From Eledone cirrhosa (Eukaryota), in contig OZ024741.1 of NCBI GenBank assembly GCA_964016885.1, forward strand, positions 202,864,001 to 202,928,000: DNA of 64,000 bases. Direction: 5' to 3'. Shown piece by piece: positions 2,023 to 62,995 of this stretch. Every line of letters begins with the position of its first letter. Within the stretch, counting starts at the first letter, position 1. The notes under the pieces were generated by a model that was not told the origin of the DNA, did no database searches, and saw nothing but the letters and a program-made list of their open reading frames with translations. The translations under genes were made by a program, and so were the position numbers.

Positions 2023-3060
2023 TCAGTCCAGAGCCTTGTAGTTATGCAATAGATGTTTGGTGACGTGTGGACAACGTGTGAAAAATTCACTTCTCGTGTT
2101 TAGGCAATCACTATTGCGTAATCTCTTTAGGATAGTTATTCTTTCGTCAATACATAAGCCACACGTCGGATTTCCCCTTGCGTATGGCTTGGACTTAGTG
2201 ATGGCTTTCCATTGAATGGAGTACCCTATACTTGAGTCCTTGAGGGACCATACGTTGCTCGCGAGTTTCGTGGATGAACGTCTGTCCGGGTATCTGAAGG
2301 TAGACTGGTGGTTCAGGAAACGCTCCTTGAATCGGCCCTCCGCCATGCCCACATAGGATTGACCTCCTGTGGTTAGTTTGGTCGGTTGGAAGTGACTACA
2401 GCTTCATAGATTACAGCTGGTGTGTTGCATTTTTGTTGATGGGGGCAAGATTCAGGCTTACGGCAAGAGCACCTTGGTGGGGTGTTGCTCCTAGGGCTGC
2501 TGGTGATGTGGACCTTCATGTTATTAGCGCAGGGGTATCCTAGTTTAACTTCGTGTCGGTTAAAGATGGAGCGCTATTTATGACCTATGAGGAAGTGTCT
2601 ATCTAAGAGGGCTAGACATTTTTTTTTCCTACATTGGTTTTAACGTTGAGTGAAAGGGAGGAGAGAACTAGATAGTTTGTATATTGATGCGCTTACTTTT
2701 CTTAATGGTGTTGTTGCTAGTAGGAGAGTAGGTGATAGGTTGTGAGAAGCCGCTGTTAGCCAACGCCGTGTTATAGTAGGGTGCCGCCCTGTCAAAGATA
2801 GCCTTATTAGAGGATAGGTTTGAGATTCTAGTACTGATATTCTTAACGAAGTTTCTAAAAACAGTGCGAGGGTGGCATGAGTCCTTGTGAATGTAATTAA
2901 GTTTCTCGTTTAGCTTATGGAAGGGTCTGTGGGTGTGTGTGCGAAGGTCTAAATTAATGTCTAAGAAATCTACGCTAGAGAGGTTGGTGGCTACTGTTAT
3001 CCTAAGGCCTAACTCATTGAAGGTAGAAGCTAAGTCTTTTTTAAACCGGTGGAGTCGTGA
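2023..3060 (-). mobile_element. Penelope-like element fragment (RT C-terminus plus GIY-YIG endonuclease), decayed
   Basis: ORF 2023..2352 (FKERFLNHQSTF...STKLASNVWSLKD...CGLCIDE...LNTRSE) typical of PLE GIY-YIG; upstream frameshifted FLDINLDL..PFHK..SCHP segment. Confidence 0.9.
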
Positions 3061-3225: not shown

Positions 3226-3367
3226 CGAGTGAAAGTATAAAGAAAAAAAGATGAAATCGAAAATGCAACTGGAGTCTTATTTAAAAAAAATATATATTTA
3301 TTTGTTTCCTTTACCGGTTTCGCAGTTCTTCTGCTTTTCAAAGGTAGAGTTGAGATGGAGGGTCTGT

Positions 3368-3420
<53 letters not shown>

Positions 3421-3638
3421 TTTCTGAATTTGTTTAGCAAGATTCTTTATCTGAAATCGTGTGTTGAAACCGATATTGTTATACTTTGGGAGGGTCATGT
3501 TGCCAATAAGAAACACACGTACCAGTTGCTTTCACTTCAATTTATTATATATTTATAAATTTATAAATTTACAAATCTACAAACTTATAAATTTCTGGTT
3601 GGTTGGTTGGTTCCACAACCAGATAGTTGTTTATATAT

Positions 3639-3683
3639 AGTCATAGTCCTTTCGTCACACACTCTGTGACCTCTTCAGTGACT
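3639..3683 (-). ncRNA. Minimal type I hammerhead ribozyme in the 3' region of a Penelope element
   Basis: Minus strand: AGTCA CTGAAGA g GTCACA gagtg TGTGAC GAAA GGAC TA TGACT; perfect helices I and II. Confidence 0.75.
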
Positions 3684-3895
3684 GGGGATTCCTTTCTTTG
3701 TTTCTGTGCCTTTCCTTTCTTCTGTCCTACGCCATTTTGTTTCTGTGTGTGTGTTGTGTGCTCAGTTTGCGCATGCGCCACATCCGGGTGTCTGTGTGTG
3801 TTTGTGTTCATTTATCTATTTGTTTATTTATTTATTTATTTATTTATTGTTGGTTGGTTGTTTGTTCTATGTGTGTGTGTGTTTTCATTTTGTCC

Positions 3896-5270
3896 TTAAT
3901 TGTAAGTTGTGATGTTGCTGTTCCACTCATATTTTCTATTTAATTTTGGTTGTAATTCTTTTATGCTTACTGCCTCTGTAATTTGCCTAAACATTGCATC
4001 TTTTCTGTGTGTGGATTCTATTTTTATTTCTATGTTCTCTAATTTACCCCTGTGTTCTATCTTAGCATGTTGGTAGAGCACAGATGATTCTTTATTGTCT
4101 TGAAGGTCTCGCCAGTGTTCATTTATTCGTTCCCCTATACTACGAGCTGTCTCACCTATGTACACTATATTTTTGTTTCTACATTGTCCTTCAGTACATC
4201 TTATGCTATACACTACATTTCTAGTTTTACAGTTAATATGGGGGCTTATTTTACAGGTTATACATTTCTTATCTATAAATGAGGGTCTTTGGAACGGGTA
4301 TGTCTTGCTAATAAGTGTTTTTACGGAGGTACCTGGTCTTTCTACTATCTTAATATTGAGTTTATGTTTATTTAGGGCCCTTCTAAATTTGTAGGCTAGT
4401 TCGCCTCTAGGGGTTGTATTGATGAACATTACACTCTGGTATTTATTGCTATCATACCATGAGTTTATTCTATTGGCCTTGTTCCTAGTTCTTTCTATTC
4501 TATTCCAAAATTTGCTCCTATACAAGGGGCAGGTCCCATTTATGTCATTATTTACCATTTTTTCCCATTTGGTTCTGGCTCCTCTATACACTCTGATTCT
4601 ATCTCTCTGATTGTAGCCAGAGAACTGCATACGGTGGATGAAGTGTTGTATGTGTCTCTCTAGTTCTTCGGGGTTGCACATGCGGGACACATTTCTCATC
4701 ACCCGTACCAAATCCGCAATCAGTATGTTGATTTTGGTATGGTCCGAAATGGCCGAGTTTCGGTGGATCAGATGTTTGGAAGTCATGGGTTTGGCATAAT
4801 GGGAATGGAGGAAGTCATGGATTTGGCATAATGGGAACGGAGGATTTGTTTTTGGTTGTTAATGGTATCTAACCAGAGCTCTGTGTCTAGTACAGGTAAT
4901 CGATGGTTGGGGTGTCTACTTGGGTAGTCTATAGTAACTCTAATGCTCTGGTGGATGGAGTTTGCTATTTGCTGGATGCTTTCCATTGTGTTTTTCTCTA
5001 GTTCCTGACTGTTCTTTAGTGGGGGTGTCTTAACTACGATGTTTATATCATCTACGTAGCGGGAGTACATTATCAGGGTTAATTCTAATTGTTCTTTAAG
5101 TTTTTGTTTAAGTCTACTGTCCCACCATACCATGAATAAGTTAGCTATGTCGCCTGCAATGCTAACACCAATGGCTGCTCCTTCCTCTTGGGCATATGTT
5201 TTACCATTAATTTTGAACATATGTTCCTTAAGGGTTAATTTTATGCTGGCCCCTACCGCATGTGCAATAT
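3896..5270 (-). mobile_element. Penelope-like element (Neptune-like), RT plus GIY-YIG, 5' truncated and frameshifted
   Basis: ORF 4783..5220 has QEEGAAIG, YSRYVDD, LPVLD; ORF 3896..4786 has CxxC..C linker, NVVYSIRC..YIGETAR..ERINEH..RQITEA. Confidence 0.93.
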
Positions 5271-5558
5271 ATATATGTGCAATATATATATATTAAAATA
5301 ACAGATTAAAGCAAAGAATCGCTTCTTTCACCCATAACGGGATCTTCTGAAACTAAAATAAAAAAAATCAATCTGTGAACGCAGAAGTAAATATTTCGAA
5401 AAATGTTACACACTATATATATATATATATATACACACACACAGACACACACACACACATCTACGTCATAATGTCGTATTGCAGACACTCAGGCAAACAG
5501 ACAGATATTATAAGGGCGCAACGTTATATCTATGTATCTATCTAAAAAGAGAAAGACT

Positions 5559-6072: not shown

Positions 6073-8009
6073 TTGATGACCATCATCAATAACCAGAGAA
6101 TAGCTGAAGAGAGGTGGGCCATTGAGAAAATCAAACTCAACCCCAAAGTGTTCTTTTCATTTGCTAAAAAACACAAGGTCACCGTCTCCACTGTTGGCCC
6201 CCTAGTTGATGAAAATGGCACACTCCAGGACAATGCCAAAACCATGGGCGAGATACTGCAGACAATACTGCATTGTTTTCAGCAATCCTGATATGGCCGA
6301 TCTGGACTGTATCAGTGATGTTAATCCCCAACACACTATATCAGACATAACGTTTGGCGCCCCTGATGTCTTAGCGGCAATAAACGAAATTAAACACAAT
6401 TCAGCAGTAGGCCCTGACAGGTTCCCTGCATGTGTCCTGAAGGTTTGTCGACACCAACTTGCATCTCCTCTTGCTAATCTGTGGAGGAATTCACTGGATG
6501 CTGGCTATATTCCTGAAAACTTTCTGTTCCAGTCCGTTGTCCCAGTCTTCAAAAAGGGAAATAAGTCTCTTGCAGTGAACTACCGTCCGATCTCACTCAC
6601 TTCTCATATTATCAAGGTATTTGAGAGGGTGGTGAGATCACGAATAACCCCCTTTCTTGAAAGCAACGGCCTGCTGAACTCCAACCAACATGGGTTCCGT
6701 AATGGAAGGTACTGCCTAACGCAGCTCCTGCATCACTTTGACGATGTTTTGAGAGCCTTGGGAGAGGGCTCCAACACTGATGTCATCTACCTTGACTTCA
6801 GCAAGGCCTTAGACAGGGTTGATCATAAGATTCTACTGAAAAAACTATCCAATGTTGGTGCCTCTGGAAGGTTACTACAGTGGATCAAATGTTTCCTGAC
6901 AGGCAGAACCCAGCATGTTGTAGTCGAAGGAGTAAAATCAAACCCTGCCAAAGTCAGCAGTGGCGTCCCACAAGGCACTGTGTTGGGCCCACTTCTGATT
7001 CATCATCTACATAAATTACTTTACTGACATCATCAAGCACAGCAACATCAGAATCTTCGCAGACGATTCCAAGCTCCAAAGGGTCATCAATGAGGTGGGT
7101 GACCGAACTTGCCTTCAGTCAGACCCACTGGCTGTTATCCAATGGGCAGAAATGAATAATATGCTGTTGAATGAAGATAAATTTGAATTAATCCACTTTG
7201 GAAAAAAGGATGCCCTGAAACTACCATACTCTCTTCCTTCAGGTGAAACTCTAGTGGCATCCAATAACATTAGAGACCTGGGAGTAATTGTGGACAACAC
7301 ATAAGCTGGGCCACTCTTATAAACAGAAAAGTTGATATGGCCCGCAGAATGTGTTCCTCGATTCTTAGAACTTTCCTGTCGAGAGATATCCACACTGTTA
7401 TCCTTCTCTTCTCCACTTTTTCCCGACCCCACCGTGAATACTGTTGTCTACTGTGGTCACCCCACACGAAACAAAGTATCATGAAAGTTGAAACACCCCA
7501 AAGGTCAATTACAAAAAAGATAGATGTCATGACAGGCCTTGACTATTGGAGTCGATTAGAAAAGCTCAAACTTTATTCTCTCCAACGTCGCCGTGAGCGC
7601 TACATTATCTGTATGATGTGGAAAATATTCCATCAGATTTGCCCAAATGATGTTGGCATCACCTTTAGTGTACACCCAAGGCTTGGGCCCTGTGCTATCC
7701 GCCCACAACAAAAATCTCACTCGCATCACATAACAACAATACGACACCCTCAATTGGCCCTGCACTCTTTAACATTACACCAAGACACATCAAAGCAGAG
7801 ACAGACCCCATCAAGTTCAAGAAGTATTTGTATAAATTCCTTCAAGAAATCCCGGATAAGCCTCCTACACCCGGATATGCCTCCGTAAACAATAACTCTC
7901 TGCTCGAGTGGGCCATGGTGCCCAAACACTGATTTGCCAGGTGGTGCTATTAAGTTAGACTTGGCCTGGGCCAATACTGGCCGAAACCTATCAAAGTTAT
8001 CAAAGTTAT
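6073..8009 (+). mobile_element. CR1-clade LINE, 5' truncated, frameshifted RT
   Basis: ORFs 6206..7027 and 7337..7888 carry NYRPISLTS, QHGFR, YLDFSKA, SGVPQGTVLGP, FADD near 7055, YSLQRRRER; 3' tail TATCAAAGT x2 then (TA)n. Confidence 0.93.
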
Positions 8010-8032
8010 ATATATATATATTGGCTGGTTCA

Positions 8033-9120
8033 ACAACCTGAATAAACAACCTGAATAAGAAAAACAAACAAACATTTATTCAATTTGACATTGCCAGCTA
8101 CTATTCTTCTATTTCGCCTTCACTTCTCAACAATCTTTCGCATTTAAATATTCTGACATCACCACAGATGAACTTCACATCATTCTCACCGCAAGAAAAA
8201 CCATCTTAGAATTCAACAATGAATACTGGACTAGAACCGATACTTCCAACAACTTTGATATCACAATGGGTGCTTCCGATTCATCGCAATTGACTGATTT
8301 GATTGGTATTTTTATTTTGAATTCTTTAAATCGGAAAATTCCTCAACTTGGCGGTGGAATTTATCGTGACGATGGACTTTTTACTATCTTAAATTGCAAC
8401 TTAGATAACCTTAATATTATTAAGAACAATATACGTGATCTCTTTAAGCAACATAACCTTAAAATTTAATTTGATAACAACGTCAAACTAGCTAACTTCT
8501 TGGATATATCCCTTAATCTTGACACTGGCCTATATTACGCTTACCCTAAAAACAATGAGAATCTAAATTATGTTAATTTTAAATCTAACCACCCCACTAA
8601 CATTAAAAATGATATAGTCAGTAATATTGGAAAAATAATATCAAACCTATCCTCTAATAAAAAATATCTTCGATGCTAACGCCAATTACTATAATAATGC
8701 GCTTTCTAAAGCCGGTTATCCTGATAAAATTAAATACAGTAAAGAAATCAATCCTAGAAGGTCTTACAGTAAAATAATTAATTATGATCATTCCATTAAC
8801 TTAAATAAAAGACCTAGATACAAAAATATAATCTGGTATAATGCTCCTTTCTCTATTTCTATTAATAATAATATTCCTAAACTATTCTTTAAGGCCTTAG
8901 ATAAATGCTTCCCTCCCTCACATATCTATAGTAAAATCTTTAACAAACATACAATAACATTTTATTATTCCACCTCCTCCAACATCTCTAACATTATCTC
9001 TAAACACAACAATAAAATATTAAATATTAAATCACATCCTTCCAACACTAAGCGTCATAATAATAGCAGTAGTACTCCAGACGTCATTGTTAACTCTAGG
9101 CTAGATTCTGTAAACTCAAA
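8033..9120 (+). mobile_element. Penelope-like element RT fragment, decayed
   Basis: FIQFDIASYYSSI, FDITMGASDS, GGIYRDDG, NFLDI, SNHP, IWYNAPFS motifs; GIY-YIG part absent. Confidence 0.9.
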
Positions 9121-9193
9121 TACGACGGCAACCGCTCTGTATAATCAGTTCCTGATTATTTACTAGAATTCTATAAGAACCAAACATCCACAA

Positions 9194-9284
9194 TTTCAGC
9201 AAACAGGAGGAGTAGTTGGATTTGATAAGCATCAATAAATGCGAAACAAGGCCTTGTCAGCTTTATCTTCCCTGTTTGCTGAAA
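9194..9284 (+). ncRNA. Type I hammerhead ribozyme, U3-A8 variant (copy 1, one helix I mismatch)
   Basis: GGAT TTGATAA GCAT caataa ATGC GAAA CAAGGCCTTG TC AGCT, enclosed by the 14-bp stem TTTCAGCAAACAGG/CCTGTTTGCTGAAA. Confidence 0.7.
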
Positions 9285-9514
9285 ATTAAAGTAAGTGAGT
9301 CTGTCACTACTCTAAAACGATAGATTAAGGTCTTCGAAATGCTTTTAATTAAGTATACAGTGTATTGCAAAATACACTATATATACATTCATATATATAT
9401 ATAGCTATTTCAGAGCACCAATTCTAATTTTCAATTTCTGCTTGACCGGCAACCGCTCTGTATAATCAGTTCCTGATTATTTACTAGAATTCTATAAGAA
9501 CCAAACATCCACGA

Positions 9515-9605
9515 TTTCAGCAAACAGGAGGAGTAGTTGGCTTTGATAAGCATCAATAAATGCGAAACAAGGCCTTGTCAGCTTTATCTCCCCTGTTTGC
9601 TGAAA
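9515..9605 (+). ncRNA. Type I hammerhead ribozyme, U3-A8 variant (copy 2, intact)
   Basis: GGCT TTGATAA GCAT caataa ATGC GAAA CAAGGCCTTG TC AGCT; predicted GUC cleavage after 9579; extended helix I. Confidence 0.8.
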
Positions 9606-9708
9606 ATTAAAGTAAGTGAGTCTGTCACTACTCTAAAACAATAGCATAAGGTCTTCGAAATGCTTTAATTTAAGCATACAGTGTATTGCAAAATACAGTA
9701 TATATACA

Positions 9709-9795
<87 letters not shown>

Positions 9796-9991
9796 GTAGG
9801 AGGTGAGTTTTATTGTAGCACAATAATATGTTGATTTAAAACTGCACTATCCACAAGTGTTTTTTAGCCTTCATATCATGTCCTCCTGTTTTATCTGATG
9901 AAAACACAAATATTATTGCATGATGATGTTTGTTTTTGAAATGCGCATAATAAAATACATGGAACTCCTTTAACCATCTTTTGATCTTATA

Positions 9992-14399: not shown

Positions 14400-16530
14400 G
14401 CTGAGTTCTAATCTATTATTTATTTCTATCACTGGCTTTAATGGTAATGGTAATATGTTGGTTGATGTTTCTACATTTGTCAATGTGTTTTTTCAATGAG
14501 GATGCGTGTGTGATGAGATGTTCGATAATGTGAGTGTGGAGTGCTCGAGTCATGCTACCAATGTAGAACTCCTTACATTTGTTGCATTCAATCTACAACT
14601 CCTTACATTTGTTGCATATACCACATGTATCCACTGGCACATACCTGTATCGCGGATAGGGCAGTTAGTCAGCGAGCATTGAATATGTTGTCTCTGGATT
14701 GCTTTTTAGACAGATATCCATGCAGTGAAGGGCCGGAGTGTGCTAATTGTATGTCCAGTCCTTCTTTGCGGATAGCTCTGCAGATAGCTGTGGTTTTGCT
14801 TTCGCTGAAATGTGGTAATTTCATGAAGCAGGTTTTAGAGGACGTCTTATGCCTGCGGCACCTTCGATTTTTAAGTCGATTCATTGTGGATGTTGTTCGT
14901 CTTCAGTATATCTATGAAGTGTGCAGTGTGAGTGTTCTGGTCCTCTGTCTTACTACATTTATTCCGGATACGTGTAAGTTCATTTCTTATGTATCCGGTT
15001 TTAGCACCAAAGGGCACGGCTGTTCTATAATGCACTAACAGGTCTCTGCTGGCAGCTTTCCTATAGGAGTTGGTGTATATAGTACCTTCATCTGTTACTC
15101 TAAGTTAGAAGTCCAGCAGAGACAAGGAACTATTTTTATCGGGGTGCTCTATGTAATCTTATGTTGTTATCTATGTTTGAAAATGTCGTAGATATTATAT
15201 CGGCCTCTTCACGGGATGATGTATGTCATCTATGTATCGGGTCAAGAGGACACACGAGCGACGGTTGTTGAACGTCCGACGTTCCAGTTGGCTCATATAG
15301 GTGATAGCTAGAAGGCCTGAAAGACTGGATCCCGTGGGTAGGCCTGCTGTTTGTTTGTATCTGTGGTGGTAGAAAGTGAAATATATATTTTCTACGATGA
15401 CGGATAGAAGCTTGTGGAGTGAGGGCGAAATAGTATATGTTGTATGAAATGATGCACTCAGTCACTAGGTTGACTGTTGGATGAGCAGGTACTGTCGAGG
15501 CTAAAGGCATATCTGTTGAGTTAGATTGGAGTTGGTTAGATTAGAGTTGATGTAGTCTTTGTATGACTTCGTCGGAGCTGCTGATATAACCAGGGAAAGT
15601 AGCAAGCATAGACTTGAGGATCAGAGAGAGGAACCAGGAGATTTTATAGAGGAGTCCTTCTATACTCGAGACAATTGGTCTAATCTGTAGATTAACACTG
15701 TTTTTGTGGGTTTTAATGAAGTGGTAGAACGTTGGTAGTCTGCTGTTTCTGGTGGTGAGGTTATTTTTATATTTGTTGGGGAGTTGTCTACGTCTGCAGA
15801 TATCCGTCCAGGTGGTGTCGATGTGATCTTCTATCTGGGATGCAGCTATGTCTGTCACCGTTGTTAAGGTGCTCATATGCTAAGCTGTTGTATGTCTCTC
15901 TCGAGATGACGCAGAATTCTGTCCCTTTGTCGGAAGGGAGATATACGAGGTCCTTCTCTCGCATGTTGTTTAGAATGAGGTGTTCTTTCCTGGAGAGGTT
16001 AGGGAGTACCGTCTTATGTTTCATTAATAATCTAGAAATAGACTGCTTAAGTCTGGAGAGACTGATGTCAAGCTCCCGGTTGATAGGCGGTGGAGAGAGT
16101 GGGTGGTGTGGTCTAAGTGGTATATAGGAAATTTAGTGTTGTTCATCACAGTAGTAGTGTTTATTACTGAGAGCCATTTGAGTTGGTAGGCAGCCCGGCA
16201 AAATCTGGCTTCAAGATTTAGTTTCATCCTGTCGTCTAGTCACTGAGTTAATATCAATTTGGGGCCAAGGCTGAGGAGTTTAAGTTCTTTGTGTGATAGC
16301 GATCCTGTCAAATCTGTGACGAGAGTTGTGGTATTATTTGAAGTGTCAGTGACCTCAGTGGTGGTAGTTCCTTGACTGTCTCTGTTGTTGTAGTGTGAAG
16401 AATTGCTGATGCGGTGGTGTTTCTTGCAAAGCCATAGGAATTTTCCTTTCAGGCATGCGTCGGATATCATGCTGATGAAACCTTTCCAAATGCCTGATAT
16501 GATGCTTGTAAGTTGTTCACGTTTCATATT
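14400..16530 (-). mobile_element. Penelope-like element, heavily decayed
   Basis: KLLSLGPK, YLPSDKG, LPTFYHFIKTHK, IRPIVSS motifs in broken ORFs 16240..16527, 15788..16024, 15541..15876; GIY-YIG remnant near 14500-14650. Confidence 0.85.
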
Positions 16531-16559
16531 CGTATAGCAGGGCTGTAAGAACTAAGGCC

Positions 16560-17135
16560 TCATACACAAAGAACTTTGTGTTTTTCATGATACCCCAATC
16601 TGGCCAGACTCGCTTCTCAAGCTTCCCAAAGGCAAGTCTCGCTTTCGCAATCCTGTGATCTATTTTTGCATCAAGGATATCATTTCTACAAAGTGTGTAC
16701 TTCCGAGATACACAAAGCTGTTCACCACCTCAAATCTTTTTCTTCTCACGAAAATATCTGGCTCCACGTACACTTCCCCAATTGGTGGAGTGTACGTGAT
16801 CTTTGTCTTTTTTATATTAACATTTAGTTCAAACAGTGCATGCATTGGAGAAGGTGTCCAATATCAACTGCATGCCACACATCTGTGTGACATAAAATCT
16901 GTATCATCAACGTACAGGAATTCCCTGACAAGAATGCCAAATGTTTAGGACTTGGTATTAAAACATCTTAGCTTAAAGACTTTACCAGAGGTTCAAATTC
17001 GCAAGTAAATACCGATTTCGAAGTCTTGGAATGGATATATCAGCTGCACGGCAAAGTAGATGCAGAACAGAGTGGGTGCAGGTATGTCACCTTGGTTGAC
17101 ACCGTTTTCCACTGACATTGGCTATGAAAGTGTCC
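16560..17135 (-). mobile_element. RTE-clade LINE RT fragment
   Basis: Minus strand PMSVENGVNQGDIPAPTLFCIYFA and VNIKKTKI..VVNSFVYLGST, homologous to about 26740-27240. Confidence 0.85.
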
Positions 17136-22899: not shown

Positions 22900-23390
22900 A
22901 GAATATACCAACACCAACCAATAAAACTTACAACAAATCATTTCAAGTCAAGTCTATTTCCTCCTAGAGCTAGAGAACTAGCACCATTTGAAGCGGACTT
23001 ACTACATCTGATTAATGATACAACATTCCAAACTAAACTTTCACATGTTCTCAACAAATTTAAATCTTCTAATAATACATTTGTCTTCTTTGATAAAAAA
23101 AAAATTTACACGAAGTTTTATTAAGTAATTAACTAATACTTAATAATACCACTAATAAATAACAAAAAGTTAAACCTATCAACTATAACACGATTAATAA
23201 TGAGGCTAAAGATATCGCTAAATACTTAAAGATAGATAAACGAATGGGAAGCTTAACCAAACGCAATGTTTATATCACTTTGAAAGATCATAAAAATGAC
23301 TTTAATAATAGACCTAGTTTTAGATTAATAACCCCACTAGAAGATCTACGATAGGGCTAGCTAGTAAGAAGATAGAACCTTTCAACACTA
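22900..23390 (+). mobile_element. Penelope-like element N-terminal/RT-start fragment
   Basis: ELAPFEADL, FFDK, ITLKDHKNDFNNRPSFRLI motifs in broken frames. Confidence 0.8.
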
Positions 23391-23406: not shown

Positions 23407-23493
<87 letters not shown>

Positions 23494-23494
23494 G

Positions 23495-23935
23495 TATATA
23501 TAGAGTATTTTGCAATACACTGTATGCTTAATTGAAAGCATTTTGAAGACCTTACGCCATTGTTTTAAAGTAGTGACAGTGTCACTTACTTCAATTTTTA
23601 GCAAACAAGGGGAGATAAGCTGACAGAGCTCTGTTTCGTACTTGTTGGTATTTATCAAAGCTCACTACTCCTATTTGCTGAACACTGAAGTAAGTGACAC
23701 TGTCACTACTTTAAAACGATAGCGTAAGGTCTTCAAAATGCTTTGAATTGAGCATACAGTGTATTGCAAAATATACTATATATACATTCATATATATATC
23801 GCTAATTCAGAGCACCAATTCTAATTTTCAATTTTTGCTGGACCGCCAACAGCTCTGTATAATCTCTTCCTGATTATTACTGGAATTCTATAAGAATCCA
23901 ACATTCATAATTTTCAGCAAACAGGAGGAGTGGTG
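23495..23935. repeat. Fold-back (inverted plus direct) copy of the 321-bp hammerhead repeat family
   Basis: About 23495-23595 mirrors 23687-23790; 23687-23932 aligns with the 9126-9712 unit in permuted order. Confidence 0.85.
23617..23663 (-). ncRNA. Type I hammerhead ribozyme, U3-A8 variant (diverged family member)
   Basis: Minus strand GAGCT TTGATAA aTAC caacaa GTAc GAAA CAGAGCTCTG TC AGCTT; compensatory changes versus the 9515 copy. Confidence 0.75.
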
Positions 23936-24589: not shown

Positions 24590-28136
<3,547 letters not shown>

Positions 28137-28436: not shown

Positions 28437-28642
28437 AGCAACGGCTAAAAAAAGTCGTTGGGACACGTAATTAAAGGGGACACGAGTGTAAACAAACAAA
28501 ATGGTGAAGCAACGGAAGGTGTGGAAGAAGGAGTCAAGTCCCAAATTTCTTCTTCCACACTTTCCGTTGCTTCACCATTTTGTTTGTTTACACTCGTGTC
28601 CCCTTTAATTACGTGTCCCAACGACTTTTTTTAGCCGTTGCT
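28437..28642. repeat. About 95-bp-arm near-perfect hairpin abutting the broken end of an R4-like LINE
   Basis: AGCAACGGCTAAAAAAAGTCG...GTGTGGAAGAAG / CTTCTTCCACAC...CGACTTTTTTTAGCCGTTGCT. Confidence 0.92.
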
Positions 28643-30521
28643 AAAGGTAGTAGCGAGATGACATTCTTTCGCAGCTGGCAACAATGTGGCTTACGTCCTC
28701 GATCTTTGTTTTACATAGCCTACATTTATTGTCAGCTGCTGACCCTCCTCTTTTGTGCAGCAGATATTTGGTAGGGAGTTCTTGTTCCTGTATTGCATAG
28801 AGATATCCCTCAAGGTGTGATGTCATAAACTTGTCGGAACGCCATGCCAGGCTTTTTGAGTGGTTTATCCCCTCTATGGTCTGTGTTTTACGCCTCAAGT
28901 ATCCATGCAGAACCTTTTCTGTAAATTGGTCAATTTTTTCATCTTGTTTGAACATTGAATAGGATCTTCCGATTTCTCTGGGTGAGAGATTTATATGAGG
29001 CTTTATTCCATATCTCTCCTCCAGATCAGTCGCTATTCTAATGATATTTTTTTTTATGCTCATAAACTTGGGCAAGATGGTTGCCAACCTTTTTCCTCTG
29101 TTGAAGGTGTTGCTTCAGTGTTACTATCCGGGTCCCATATGTTGTTAATATGGATTTTAGACCCCGGCCACCTTCCTTGCCTGAGAAGTATAACCTATCC
29201 ACATCACCATTGATGTTAAAGTTCCCAGTAACACTGAGAAGTTTGCGAGTTCTAACATCCATCTCACTTAGTTCTTGCAATGACCAGTTCAGCAGACCAA
29301 ATGTTGGCGTTAGTATTGGCACAGCATAAGTATTGTGGGCAATGTATTTGTTGTATGCTGACAGTTCTGATAACCATATTTTCTTTACTCTTCTGAGGTA
29401 TTCAGTTCTGGTTCTCTCCTTTTTTTATGGGTCCATCATATCTGACATTCTCGTCCTGTCCAAGATATATGTAGTTGTCACCTGACTGTAGAGGTTGTAT
29501 TGTCAGGCCGTTCATCTCTAGATTTCTAGAGGAGGGCACAGCTCTTCCACGTTTTACTGCCAAATATGCACACTTGGACTCACCAAATTTCATTTTGATG
29601 TCTGTTGAAAATTGTGTAATGAGGTCCAATTGTTTCTTGATGTCATTGATATTTGGCCCATACAACTTCAGGTCATCAACAAAGAAAAGATGGGAGATAC
29701 TTCTGGACCCACCCCTTTGTCCACCTTGTTTCCTGAGTAGGTAAGATAGTGGATTTAGTGAGAGAGCGAAGAGTAGCACTGACAAGCTATCACCCTGAAA
29801 GGTGCCATTCTGGTAATGTATCTTATCAGTCTTAACTTGCTCCTTCTCACCTCTAAGGATCAAATTGGTGTACCAGTTCTTGGTCAGGCGTTCAACAGCA
29901 GCTACCAATGGTTGTGGGACTTTGACTAACTGTAAAGCCTTAATAATCCACCCATGAGGTACACTATCAAATGCTTTTTGATAGTCCAGCCACACCACAG
30001 TCATGTTTCTGCGATTCTTTGTTGTTTTTTCCTGAATCATTTTATTAGTTAGTAGGTGATCTATGCAACCCCACACCCCCCTCTTTCCACCAGCTTGCTC
30101 GGGTGTTTTGATGTTGTTGGTAGCACAGTGATCCTGTAAGAACAGGTTAAGGCACCCAGTATATAATTTATACATGATATTTTGGCAGGCTATTGGGCGG
30201 TAATTTTTAGCAAGGGTGGTTTGGCTATTTTGGGGAATGAGGAGAGTAGTGGCAGTTGATAACCATCTGGGCAGTTCTTGTGTGCCTTTAATGTTTCTGT
30301 AAACAGCCGTATGAGATCTTGACGATAGAAAGTGAAATTCTTCAACCAGTATCCTGTAATGAGGTCTGGGTCTGGTGATTTCCTATTCGACATTTTCTGT
30401 AGAGCTGTTTCCAGTATTGACCCATCTATGTCATATTGTTTTGTCTGGACATGTTGGCAGAAGTCCTGTTCCAGTTCTTTTAGCCAATTAGTTTATCTGT
30501 TGAATCCGTCATCCGTTTCCC

Positions 30522-37751: not shown

Positions 37752-37807
<56 letters not shown>

Positions 37808-37961
37808 CATGCAGGTACACATACATATATGCACGCATCAGTTTAGCGGACGCTTATTATAGCGCTTGCTTTGTTCGTTTGTCAACAAACTGAACAGCCT
37901 GAATTTATGCCATACGGTGTTAAGGCAACCACGTCACCTTTTTGTTCAACACTGACACAGG

Positions 37962-38006
37962 AACGATGTACTAGTTTCAAGCTTGTTAGCTATCATCAGC
38001 ACCGTT
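37962..38006 (-). ncRNA. Minimal type I hammerhead ribozyme, unit 1
   Basis: Minus strand AACGGTG CTGATGA t AGCT aaca AGCT t GAAA CTAG TA CATCGTT; 7-bp helix I, palindromic ACTAGT. Confidence 0.8.
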
Positions 38007-38247
38007 TACCCATCTGCCAGATAGTTGAACGTTCGAAAGTATATACTTTCCTTATGAAAATTAACGGCTGAGCAGCCTAATTTGCATATTGAGTGAGTTA
38101 AATCGGTCAGGCATACCGAAAACGATAAGTTGAAAAAAATGAAAACGAAAAACGAAATTTCATTTCTCACTCTTAGTATGGCACTTACTTAAATGTAAGT
38201 ATGTATGTATACGTACATACATATATGTACACAGACGTACAGTAGCA

Positions 38248-38285
<38 letters not shown>

Positions 38286-38439
38286 CATGCAGGTACACAT
38301 ACATATATGCACGCATCAGTTTAGCGGACGCTTATTATAGCGCTTGCTTTGTTCGTTTGTCAACAAACTGAACAGCCTGAATTTATGCCATACGGTGTTA
38401 AGGCAACCACGTCACCTTTTTGTTCAACACTGACACAGG

Positions 38440-38484
38440 AACGATGTACTAGTTTCAAGCTTGTTAGCTATCATCAGCACCGTT
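38440..38484 (-). ncRNA. Minimal type I hammerhead ribozyme, unit 2
   Basis: Identical to 37962-38006. Confidence 0.8.
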
Positions 38485-38725
38485 TACCCATCTGCCAGAT
38501 AGTTGAACGTTCGAAAGTATATACTTTCCTTATGAAAATTAACGGCTGAGCAGCCTAATTTGCATATTGAGTGAGTTAAATCGGTCAGGCATACCGAAAA
38601 CGATAAGTTGAAAAAAATGAAAACGAAAAACGAAATTTCATTTCTCACTCTTAGTATGGCACTTACTTAAATGTAAGTATGTATGTATACGTACATACAT
38701 ATATGTACACAGACGTACAGTAGCA

Positions 38726-38763
<38 letters not shown>

Positions 38764-38917
38764 CATGCAGGTACACATACATATATGCACGCATCAGTTT
38801 AGCGGACGCTTATTATAGCGCTTGCTTTGTTCGTTTGTCAACAAACTGAACAGCCTGAATTTATGCCATACGGTGTTAAGGCAACCACGTCACCTTTTTG
38901 TTCAACACTGACACAGG

Positions 38918-38962
38918 AACGATGTACTAGTTTCAAGCTTGTTAGCTATCATCAGCACCGTT
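38918..38962 (-). ncRNA. Minimal type I hammerhead ribozyme, unit 3
   Basis: Identical to 37962-38006. Confidence 0.8.
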
Positions 38963-39164
38963 TACCCATCTGCCAGATAGTTGAACGTTCGAAAGTATAT
39001 ACTTTCCTTATGAAAATTAACGGCTGAGCAGCCTAATTTGCATATTGAGTGAGTTAAATCGGTCAGGCATACCGAAAACGATAAATTGAAACAAAATGAA
39101 AACGAAAAACGAAATTTCATTTCTCATAAACTGATGCGTGCATATATGTATGTGTACCTGCATG

Positions 39165-56423: not shown

Positions 56424-59400
56424 AAAAAAATTATACACAGCGTTTACAAATTCAAATTACAACATCATTAATAAAGAAAGCAAAAGAAAAAGAAGAAAAA
56501 AAAACGATAGAGAGAAAAAAAGATAGATAGGAACTCCCGAGAACTCATACACTCGCTACCTAAAGAAACCTCTTGCTGAGTCAAACAACGCCGTACGCTA
56601 AAACTATCCACAATACGGAGTATTCACAACCTCTAACTGGATTATCTATAACGATAACTTATTATCCCTTATACCAAGCTCCCGCTAGGTTGAGCAACAA
56701 CCTTAATGTACGACACTAACATGGAAAGACACCACATAGGCATGTCCTTAAAAAACATACCTATACCTACAAACAGGGAATATACACTCGGTATTATACA
56801 AAGAACTAATGACTTTATCCGTCGAATCCGATGGAAAGCATATCATTACGATAAAGAACATACTAGTAATAATAGTGGTAGTAATAGTAATGATAAGAAT
56901 GATGAATTTACCAGTGAAAAATATGGGTTCAAATCCTGCAAATATCCACCGAACAACCCCCAACTTGACGCCTTTGAAAATGACCTCATGATAAACGGAA
57001 CCAAATTCAAAATACGGACGCATTACAACAAACTGCAAAATAACATCAATGCACTACTAAAAAAATTGCGTAACACCAACGGTATTATAGTAAAAGCAGA
57101 CAAAACATCAAACGTATACACCATGAGCATACATACAATAACTTTATACGCCGGGAATTACACAAAAAATACAAGAAAACTACAGAGTCTACACTCAATA
57201 GCATTAATAAGGAAGGACTTAACATAGTAAAAAGACTCAAAATATCTGATAGAACCGAACCTCTGACCCCTTGTAAACCCACTTTTAATAAATGCAACTT
57301 CGAAACTGACCCTACTATTAGATTAATATGCCCATCAAAGTCGGATATAGGTAGAATTAGCAAGTATATACTAGATAGAATAATACCACAAATTAAAGGC
57401 AAACTAATAATTAAGCTTTGGGGTAACACTAATGAAGCAATAGATTGGTTTAGCAAATTAGACAATAAGGAAACTTCTGACTTCATACAATTTGACATCA
57501 ATGACTACTACTCCTCTATTTCGCCAGTCACCCTAAATAAGGCACTAACCTTTGCACAAAAAAAAACTCGGACCTATCATCCGATGAAATTAAAATAATA
57601 CTAGCTGATAGAAGAACAATCATTAGGTTCAATAATAGTTACTGGGAAAGAAAAAATAGACAAAATAACTTTGATATCACTATGGGATCTAACGATTCAG
57701 CTTAAATAACGGACATGGTCGGAATTTATATAGCACATATCTTACATAAGGAATTTGGTAACCTCCAGGGAGGAATTTATAGAGACGATACATTACTTTT
57801 AGCTAAAAACTTAAATAATCAAAACTTGGAAAGATTACGTAAAAAGATTAGAACCTTCTTCAAAAAATTAGGCCTAAACATCAGTTTCGAACTCAACTCT
57901 AAAAAAGCTAACTTCTTAGATGTATCACTCAACCTAGACACAAGACTAATAGAGCCCTTCCATAAAAATAACGAAAATCTTGCTTACATTAGTTATAACT
58001 CAAACCACCCTCGCTCCATAATTAACTCCATAGCACATAGTATATCCCTTAGAATTTCACGCTTATCTTCTAACCTAGAGATTTTTAATGAACACGCTAA
58101 CTACTACAACATAGCTTTACTTAAAGCAGGCCACACAGAGAGGTATACCAGATACATACCAGATACAAACAACAACAACACACTTAACAGCAATAACACC
58201 ACCCTCACCTATAGAAATAACAAATATAAGACTAAACATAGAAATAGGTAATGAGCACCAGAAATAATTGAACCGAATACTAATATAAGGACCCCTAGGA
58301 ACTATAGAAGACCCAGAGATAGAAAATACTTATGGTTCAATCCAATATTTAATTCCTCTATAGAAACCAAACTACCTTCTATATTCTTTAAATTAATTGA
58401 CAAGCACTTCCCTAAATTTCACAAATACCATAAAATCTTTAATATCAAACTATCTTACTCTACTGCAACCAACATAGAATCACACATACAGAAAATTAAG
58501 TATAAAAGAATCTCTAATACAAATAGCCTCCAAACAAGCACCATAACACCAAATACAAAACACATTCACATAAAAAAATCACAACCACACACACCTCAGA
58601 ATACATCACAACAATACATCAACAAACCCAAATCTCAGCCCATACATAACAACATACAAAACCGCATCGCTGAACCGGCACATAGGAAGGCCTCAAAATG
58701 TAACTGTTACTTACCGGATAAGTGCCCACTACAAAATAGATGCCTTGAATCTAATATAGTGTGCCTATGTACTATAAATTCAGGCAACTTAGCATGGCAC
58801 TACATAAGTTCTACGACGGGCGAGTTAAAAAAACCTTGGTACGTCCACAGACATTCTATAAAGAACCGTAAACTAATGAATACAACAATGCTCGCCAATA
58901 AAATCTGGTAGCTTAAAGATACAAACCAAGAATACAGGATTAACTGGTCTAAATTGTCAGGGGCAATGGCCTACAAAATTCGTATGTCCCACTGTAGACT
59001 TTATAATATGGAATTATTCCATATTTTAAAATATGACAAAATGCTGCCTAACAGCAAAATTGAACGGTCAATTTTCTGTAGACATAAAGCAGCAAATAAA
59101 TTCGATAATTTCAAACCAACTTGAATCGACCCAACAATTCCATAATTAAAATTATACCACCTGAGTCTATTATAATAACCCATTATCATAATTGTTGTTA
59201 TTATTGTTATTAACTGTCAATGAATCAATATCATAACCTATGATATTTTTTCTCTTTCGTTTTCAATCTTTCAATTTCATTCCCTAAATATATTTCATCT
59301 CTTACACTATACCCTATCGTATTATCTTCACTTCTAATATAACTTCCAATTTATTAATTAATTAATTTAACTAATACATATATGAATATATTTAATATTT

Positions 59401-59731
59401 TCATGTTTATACCATCATATCTTTACATTTTAACCACCAATACCACAACTATTTTCAACAATCATATTATATTCATTTTCTTCGCACATATATAACATTT
59501 ATTTATTTATTTTTTATCATCTTCGCTATAACTTATTTATTATTATTCATTTATTATCACTACTTTTATTTTTCTCTCTATTTTTCTTTTTCTTTATCTT
59601 TTTTCTTTATTCTTTTTTTTATTCTTTCTTTCTTTCTCTTTTTTCTCTCTATCTTTTTCTTCTTTCTTCTTTTTCTTTCTTTATTAATGATGTTGTAATT
59701 TGAATTTGTAAACGCTGTGTATAACTTTTTT

Positions 59732-59843
59732 CAGTTATCTGATGATTTGGTTAAGCATACATCGTATTTAAAATTGAGTGACACAACTTCAAGTGATTAG
59801 CAATTTTAAGACAACTTAACTAATGAAACGATTGTTAATACTG
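59732..59843 (+). ncRNA. Type I hammerhead ribozyme with extended stem II in the Penelope 3' pseudo-LTR
   Basis: CAGTTAT CTGATGA t TTGGTTAAG..TTAAAATTG..CAATTTTAA..CTTAACTAA t GAAAC gatt GTT aATACTG. Confidence 0.65.
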
Positions 59844-60049
59844 TAAATAAAACCCTTTTTGTACTTTTGACCATGTTATTCTTCACTCTTTCACTATTAT
59901 TACTCCAAGATTAACTTACATAGGAACTCCCGAGAACTCATATACTCGCTACCTCTTGTTGAGTCAAACAACGCCGTACGCTAAAATTATCCTCAATACG
60001 GAGTATTCACAACCTCTAACTGGATTACCTATAACGATAACTTGTTATC

Positions 60050-60127
<78 letters not shown>

Positions 60128-62289: not shown

Positions 62290-62995
62290 ATAATGTGGGG
62301 CTGTAATACAGGAAAGTTTTGTGCAATTTATGTTTACAAGCCGAAATTTCCTCAGATTTTTTGTTTAAGATGTGGTCATTGGCGTAGAGTATTTCCAGGG
62401 CTTCAGCGGCGCAGAGGTCACATGGTCTTTTATTTCCGTTATACGATCTAGCTTAGGCTAGGATCTCCGAGTGTAACCTATATTGGGCGTGGTTGTCTTT
62501 TAGACTCCAGATATAAGCTGAAAGTGACGTCATATTCCTTCTTAAAGGGTTAAGAAAAGAATGGGTATGCATGTAAAGACGCTGCTTGAATCTATTGGCG
62601 GTTAACCATATGTAGGCCCTACGGGACGTGGGTGTTTCAACCTTACATTTGTAGACAATATTACATGAGAGGCATTTCCCGGATAGGGGGCAGTCAACCC
62701 GATTCCTACAATTACAGTTAATACTAGCTACAGGGTTACACATGTTCCTACGGCTAGGTAGTTTAGCTAAATTTGAAGCAGTGATGTTATGTGCAAGGTT
62801 AGGAGTCGTAGAGTAAGAAATTTTAATGGTATTTCTATTAAAAAATTTATTATATTTATGTGCTGGGGGAAATGCTTCATAATGAGGGAGAGAAAGATCT
62901 TAGCTAATGGTGTGGCCACCTCCATATTATATGGTGGGTTATACCATATAAATAATGCGTCGGGATCTATTTTTACTAGGTCTATGCTCATACTC
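62290..62995 (-). mobile_element. Penelope-like element 3' fragment (GIY-YIG)
   Basis: IWYNPPYN; CNCRNRVDCPLSGKC..NIVYKC..YIWLTANRFKQR..TSLSAYIWSLKD. Confidence 0.9.

Follow-up and report, generated by a model that had tools for sequence, protein, structure and literature searches.

The tandem repeat of about 320 bp that starts near position 9,126 of the window (the whole 64,000-nucleotide stretch of Eledone cirrhosa DNA analysed here) carries in every unit a type I hammerhead motif with a U3-A8 pair in place of the textbook C3-G8. On sequence grounds, the feature is real and structurally selected; for the presumed retrozyme, we infer self-cleavage, expression, circular forms and a helper element. 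The reading that we hold with good confidence is that the non-coding repeat is a retrozyme, whose multi-unit RNA would cut itself after C17. The cutting form would likely be a double hammerhead, and Penelope-type enzymes would copy the RNA into TA tracts. The headline claim is modest, since both the core variant and the type of element are already known. In our judgment, the points worth following are the covariation that only a dimer can accommodate and the size of the U3-A8 class.

The tandem-repeat call in the window covered 9126-9724, with 1.9 copies at a period of 321 bp and 96% matches, and the two units were 96.4% alike over 278 aligned nt. An earlier note on this DNA had placed the start of the repeat at 9126; the natural unit instead begins past the internal TA run, at about 9404 (Table 1). 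Its description of U3-A8 hammerheads in both units was borne out, as type I motifs in exact register with C17 at 9258 and 9579, and so was the perfect 14-bp stem beyond the internal loop of helix I. The hammerhead of copy 1 is probably impaired, because it carries C-to-A at helix I position 2.2 (9220), a rare mismatch present in 1 of 75 subfamily copies. No inverted arm is present at this locus. The third, diverged copy reported at 23617-23663 does exist, but it lies on the minus strand as one arm of an inverted pair, and its G10.1 is damaged. What had been taken for a stem II covariant, (A)UAC/GUAC, is a damaged G10.1-C11.1 pair in a subfamily with GUAC/GUAC.

Table 1. Coordinates of the repeat units, hammerhead elements and neighbouring features in the window.
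Feature	Position	Strand	Remarks
(TA)7 at 5' end of Penelope piece	8007..8020
Penelope ORF piece, Hydra-clade-like	8020..9127	+	both ends cut; adjoins unit 1 through a 2-nt (CG) overlap
Putative retrozyme unit 1	9126..9403	+	5'-truncated by 43 nt; internal TA run at its end
Hammerhead copy 1	9194..9284	+	U3 9222, A8 9227, C17 9258
Putative retrozyme unit 2	9404..9712	+	complete; 'short' terminus, CATTCA followed by TA run
Hammerhead copy 2	9515..9605	+	intact; distal 14-bp stem, internal loop, proximal helix I
Copy 2 distal stem	9515-9528/9592-9605	+	14 bp, perfect
Copy 2 helix I, 5' strand	9537-9542	+
Copy 2 core, U3-U4-G5-A6-U7-A8-A9	9543..9549	+	UUGAUAA
Copy 2 helix II with loop	9550-9563	+	GCAU/AUGC (4 bp), loop CAAUAA
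Copy 2 G12-A13-A14	9564-9566	+	GAA
Copy 2 helix III palindrome	9567-9578	+	12 nt, ACAAGGCCUUGU
Copy 2 C17	9579	+	predicted cleavage site after C
Copy 2 helix I, 3' strand	9580-9585	+
(TA)n tract at 3' end	9699..9795		inferred target
Separate 3' end of related Penelope element	9826..9990	+	about 89% to the ORF's family; C3-G8 hammerhead-like motif ~9889-9952
Second insertion, minus arm, GUAC subfamily	23477..23682	-	U3 23658, C17 23622, A in place of G10.1; (TA)n 23411-23502 at its end
Second insertion, plus arm	23670..23934	+	begins within the long stem; breaks off before the next core

The 3.0-Gb genome is that of an animal and is rich in TA repeats. A family pattern with U3-A8 gave 838 exact matches, and the reversed control gave none. 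Another base stood at position 3 in 13 matches and at position 8 in 10 (23 single mismatches), so that U-A made up 838 of the 861 family-pattern matches, and C3-G8 within the family context had no match genome-wide. A sister family with C3-G8 was sought with a looser pattern and rejected, as none of its 15 matches was similar to the unit (blastn, E < 1e-3). The single changes at positions 3 and 8 involved every base and every subfamily, a scatter that one would expect if copies decay once inserted. As for abundance, the first look returned 2,212 family candidates in the genome. Among the first 100 matches of a generic U3-A8 pattern, 22 looked like this family and the strict pattern catches 2, and ten loci fetched from the generic matches were 77-93% identical to the unit, suggesting a family of very roughly 2,000-5,000 copies. 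The unit is non-coding, with a longest ATG frame of 40 codons, and its GC content of 33% is lower than the 45-50% that bounds non-LTR retrozymes. Hammerheads were spaced 316-324 bp apart, the units standing head to tail with no ORF in between, and at least two head-to-tail hammerheads were present at 25 of the 102 sites.

To follow the structure between copies, we aligned 143 of 153 distinct full-length motifs; the ten that were dropped crossed an inversion junction or were truncated. The loci comprised 60 best matches to the two window variants and 50 chosen by the U3-A8 pattern. U4, G5, A6, N7, A9, G12, A13, A14, A15.1-U16.1 and H17 were each kept in 135-143 of the 143 copies, a core conservation that is partly built in because about half of the loci were chosen by the core pattern. 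Loop 2 (CAANAA) and the U of loop 1, between which a tertiary contact may form, were highly conserved and similar to those of HH9. Over all helices, 93.8% of the cells were paired, versus 34-51% in slid-partner controls. Changes on both sides were found at pairs 2.1-1.1 (UA in 115 copies, CG in 19), 10.2-11.2 (CG 87, UA 47), 10.4-11.4 (UA 72, CG 65), 15.4-16.4 (GC 68, AU 47) and 15.5-16.5 (AU 63, GC 56), counts that are per copy and not per event and that correspond, by our reading, to about 6-8 independent founder changes. Helix III position 15.6 (alignment column 61, window 9572) showed G>A in 18 of 143 copies from several subfamilies, far above neighbouring columns.

The both-side changes indicate that the structure is selected, even though the 3-8 pair is invariant within the family. 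The covariation between family members that the earlier note had claimed is therefore present in helices I, II and III, between subfamilies, and its view of a structurally selected family with a U3-A8 core agrees with these helices and with the finding that no mismatched 3-8 variant has expanded. On its question of whether other genomic copies keep the 3-8 pair and the helices, the 838 intact matches and the paired cells of the alignment answer that they do. Its statement that U3-A8 is compensatory is correct relative to the textbook core only; within the family, the pair was U-A in 139 of 143 copies, never C-G and never altered on both sides. The suggestion that the family may be unannotated holds for Rfam, which misses it: the best ribozyme match was Hammerhead_HH9 (RF02275) with 21.6 and 17.7 bits, so far below the gathering score of 52 that membership was rejected. 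Novelty of the U3-A8 core is not supported, since a natural U3-A8 variant has been published (PMC3088659, PMC4209133, in the parts compared) and at least two further U3-A8 families occur in this genome. The microRNA and snoRNA matches of Rfam in the window were TA-repeat noise.

The predicted folds differed between single and tandem motifs. The segment 9515-9605 folded at z = -7.8 against 200 shuffles; its predicted minimum fold was not the hammerhead and lay 7.1 kcal/mol below the hammerhead fold of copy 2. For single motifs in general, the monomer hammerhead fold lay about 5-7.5 kcal/mol above the minimum, energies from a model that ignores tertiary contacts. In the alternative fold, U3-U4-G5 and the 5' strand of helix I pair with the palindrome, and this fold recurs in the whole monomer, whether linear or circular. 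When the cores of natural tandems were held open, the palindromes paired mutually in all five tandems evaluated, 8-15 kcal/mol better than as two hairpins, although this open-core fold was still 0.2-4.0 kcal/mol less stable than the free minimum. Every subfamily seen preserves the palindrome in its majority form, and forms of 10 nt, 11 nt and 13 nt with one unpaired base also exist. The compensation at 15.5-16.5 fits pairing between copies, because in a monomer hairpin this pair would close a loop of 2 nt. Together with the predicted inactive fold of the monomer, this points to a hammerhead that likely cleaves as a dimer, a published model for motifs with a palindromic helix III (PMC4209133 and PMC6765202, in the parts compared). 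Covariation at a pair that is impossible in the monomer is natural sequence evidence for this double-hammerhead model. The alternative monomer fold paired 84% of cells, versus 92.5% for the palindrome, and explains part of the palindrome covariation. Considering that covariation and fold predictions point to dimer cleavage, the monomer assay on 9515-9605 that had been proposed for this ribozyme could give a false negative.

The insertions themselves bear a characteristic layout. Two divergent (inverted) arms were found at 61 of 102 sites, and the arms end at two fixed points: the nearer one follows CATTCA, and the other, about 35 nt beyond it, follows a 24-nt tail. Of 66 two-armed sites in all, 64 had readable ends, and 55 of these combined a short end with a tail end, 8 were short-short and 1 was tail-tail; under independence, the short-plus-tail combination would be expected in about half. 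At least six TA repeats were reached by 138 of 191 ends, and target duplications are unreadable since the insertions end in TA tracts. An inverted 5'-truncated partner copy, a tail of 30-40 bp and TA targeting are described as marks of Penelope elements (PMC8557442, in the part compared), and the tail has been attributed to two start sites of the reverse transcriptase, used on both DNA strands (PMC11167929). Because the inverted arms, the short-plus-tail ends and the TA targets match these marks, the repeat was likely pasted in by Penelope-type enzymes.

Several observations bear on the RNA intermediate. Of the rare variants, opposite arms shared 48 of 622, tandem neighbours 27 of 701 and unrelated sites 643 of 61,932; the sharing between opposite arms speaks for one template per site, and the low sharing between tandem neighbours counts against our preferred reading. 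In distal helix I, A>G changes were in excess over T>C (33/935 vs 11/854, p = 0.002), although 11 of the 33 sit on one position; outside this stem A>G stood at 109/9,161, and C>T and G>A showed no bias. This excess in the long stem suggests possible A-to-I editing of a hammerhead-strand RNA intermediate. At locus L182 (C1:6,518,500-6,523,000), six hammerheads with 316-bp spacing are flanked by (TA)n on both sides, and 0-1 nt separates the five units that were compared; near-identical units between TA tracts indicate that the family moved recently. L182 has an 11-nt palindrome and a further change in helix II. Contigs from four further runs gave known subfamily variants at the locus and one related contig in a second organism ('organism B'), which shares several variant letters and the 316 spacing with L182, a likeness judged from variant letters only.

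The Penelope ORF piece that adjoins unit 1 is 97-98% like other genomic copies, which run on into an endonuclease. Its Hydra label rests on the motifs RWK, DKT and CxCx5C in its family, compared by eye with the relevant part of PMC8557442, as Pfam gave one match, a sub-threshold RVT_1 in one of five ORF pieces. A single template jump from retrozyme RNA to Penelope mRNA would give the layout of the window junction, and so would a later deletion. Family-wide linkage of the repeat to an ORF with reverse transcriptase and GIY-YIG domains was not found. For the adjoining ORF family, 16 long loci gave no match to the repeat, nor did 5 loci of a third U3-A8 family, and among the Penelope loci examined no autonomous element ended in this repeat.

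The junction raises the question of whether the repeat is the pLTR of an autonomous Penelope element, present mostly as 5'-truncated copies, with the ORF at 8020-9127 as its body. The direct join in the window speaks for it, and Hydra-type endonuclease frames at L193, L195 and L196 are indeed followed, after about 300 nt, by a different U3-A8 motif. However, this ORF was rejected as the body of the element: the other 29 of its 30 copies enter a linker and the endonuclease instead of the repeat, making the window junction unique, and the 3' end that belongs to the ORF family bears no relation to the unit and has a C3-G8 motif. The head-to-tail units without an ORF between them also disagree with a pLTR, and we regard this explanation as largely refuted and very improbable. 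Even less credence is due to an ordinary satellite or dispersed repeat that resembles a hammerhead by chance. The low Rfam score and a predicted minimum fold that is not a hammerhead would agree with it, but a core in register, covariation in three helices, empty reversed controls and the Penelope marks leave it next to no probability.

The remaining alternatives accept the mobile element and differ in how its RNA behaves. In one, the monomer would cleave efficiently, a tetraloop closing its 4-bp helix III, and the centre of the palindrome would be kept for some other reason, for example the alternative fold or hairpin correction during copying. A 4-bp helix III hairpin is indeed possible in the monomer; the conservation of loop 2 and of the loop-1 U, the G>A changes at 15.6 and the both-side pair changes that the alternative fold also shows are in its favour, as are coral and mussel retrozymes, whose single genomic repeats self-cleave (PMC7229834). 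According to the part of that paper compared, self-cleavage is efficient in most invertebrate retrozymes, and amphibian ones need dimers. Against efficient monomers stand the retention of the palindrome in the majority form of each subfamily and at other lengths, the break of the alternative-fold pair 2.4-16.5 in one subfamily (23 unpaired cells) and the energy gap between the hammerhead fold and the minimum; we consider this improbable. Slightly less probable still is that Penelope enzymes copy uncleaved linear multi-unit transcripts without any circle, the hammerhead serving as a protein-binding structure or as a slow, protein-assisted one. All aligned full copies run intact across the cleavage site, and the 5' ends of the arms showed no clear peak at C17; both speak for this reading. 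It would also agree with the anole Penelope element, in which hammerhead cleavage was unnecessary for insertion in vitro and needed protein, catalytic mutants still inserted, and the site was not an end point of any RNA read (PMC11167929). However, the catalytic positions are all kept across subfamilies while the helix pairs change, and near-identical multi-unit arrays flanked by TA tracts, such as L182, fit repeated copying of one small template, although a transcript of a young array would fit them too.

The retrozyme with a likely double hammerhead thus remains our preferred explanation, and it would work as follows. Tandem copies would be transcribed, and neighbouring palindromes would pair into one 12-bp helix III, so that both cores could cut and release a monomer of about 320 nt. 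A host ligase would close the monomer into a circle, a step already suggested for the retrozymes of mussel, coral and axolotl, and the monomer would be held inactive with U3-U4-G5 and the 5' strand of helix I bound to the palindrome. A Penelope-type reverse transcriptase/endonuclease, for which a Hydra-clade element is the most likely candidate, would then cut a TA tract and use each of the two DNA ends to prime cDNA, starting at two sites inside the RNA. Reading through the ligated cleavage site would yield arms that stand head to head and contain anything from one unit to several. A bolder version, which we find doubtful as a whole, makes this a two-state switch in which the circle would be locked off and multimers would cut as double hammerheads. 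A Hydra-clade enzyme would copy an ADAR-edited circle, beginning at the two fixed sites and filling a single TA break from either end. A template jump from the retrozyme RNA onto the mRNA of that enzyme would be preserved as a fossil at the window locus and would name the helper. In this version, U3-A8 hammerheads, invisible to CUGANGA searches, would perhaps be the majority of compact hammerheads in the genome.

In one geometry only, the generic pattern gave 24,386 U3-A8 matches (control 532) versus 13,169 C3-G8 matches (control 84), and on this one pattern hammerhead censuses based on CUGANGA may undercount this genome badly. A second, unrelated U3-A8 family is represented in the window at 3295-3352 (minus strand) and also at loci L091-L100 and L197-L201; it has a 6-nt palindromic helix III and a GUA site, 12,968 exact genome matches, and often opposed arms ending in TA tracts. 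A third U3-A8 motif (L192-L196, C1) has an 8-nt palindrome. In L193, L195 and L196, it lies on the 3' side of Hydra-type endonuclease frames, at a distance of about 300 nt; an autonomous element likely carries it as its pLTR ribozyme. At 37773-39126 on the minus strand, a retrozyme-like 478-bp tandem of 2.8 copies, 99% alike, has C3-G8 cores at 38955, 38477 and 37999. A further C3-G8 family (L101-L102, L104-L108, L111, L113-L114) combines a similar 6-nt loop 2 with a long helix I and a minimal helix III, and cores related to it form arrays with about 466-469 bp spacing.

The window also holds Penelope and LINE-type remains. A decayed, near-complete Hydra-clade-like Penelope element at 56694-60053 (plus strand) shows RWK, DKT and CxCx5C, and has a C3-G8 motif with a long helix II at about 59735-59845; its upstream flank is loosely like the stretch 9130-9165 of the repeat. 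The C3-G8 hammerhead at 3635-3690 (minus strand), behind a Penelope ORF at 3896-5292, is of the typical minimal form, with one more base following A9. By-eye labels mark more Penelope ORF fragments at 2023-3060 and 62330-62988 (both minus), 23200-23320 (plus) and 15541-16948, and remnants of LINE-type reverse transcriptase at 6206-7888, 25038-28136 and 28641-30492.

Comparison with known systems places the family as follows, the published descriptions being taken from the compared parts of each paper unless noted. Natural U3-A8 hammerheads are a described variant that is active in vitro (Perreault et al. 2011, PMC3088659), and about 1,300 U3-A8 min-HHRs are known from the Cercyon Penelope elements of Schistosoma mansoni (Cervera and de la Pena 2014, PMC4209133). 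The descriptor of the latter study missed U3-A8, and it took a palindromic 15.2-16.2/loop 3 to imply dimers. The Eledone family shares the 3-8 pair swap with both. The Schistosoma motifs are minimal, with a long helix II and a short helix I, and mostly single (PMC4209133), whereas in the repeat described here helix II is 4 bp long with a CAANAA loop, helix I contains an internal loop and continues into a long distal stem, and the unit is tandem and non-coding. It resembles Rfam HH9 (RF02275) in loop 2 and in the internal loop of helix I, below the threshold and not as a member.

The insertion marks bring the family close to Hydra-clade and other endonuclease-bearing Penelope-like elements (Craig et al. 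2021, PMC8557442; Frangieh et al. 2024, PMC11167929), which likewise have an inverted 5'-truncated partner, a 30-40-bp tail at one end, (TA)n targets and a hammerhead near the 3' end. Unlike them, it lacks an ORF; comparison with the 3' ends of the examined Hydra-type families revealed no similar sequence. The definition of non-LTR retrozymes comes from Cervera and de la Pena (2020, PMC7229834); Li, Clavereau and Pollet (bioRxiv 10.64898/2026.07.22.740005) linked these retrozymes to Penelope pLTRs. Penelope copying of retrozyme circles is proposed but not shown in the papers compared, and young, near-identical arrays with two fixed ends would be a substrate for testing it. No cephalopod or U3-A8 retrozyme came up in the literature searched, and Repbase, Dfam or the supplements of papers may name the family. 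As in metazoan non-LTR retrozymes, the units are short (150-450 bp there), tandem, low in GC, non-coding and dispersed, each has one type I hammerhead, and Penelope elements co-occur. The Eledone family differs in its U3-A8 core and in a 12-nt helix III palindrome in place of a 1-2-bp stem, and its inverted arms, fixed ends and TA targeting are not met in the compared text of PMC7229834 and the bioRxiv paper. As judged from these sequence features, it is a further example of the non-LTR retrozymes of animals, built on a core variant that was known before.
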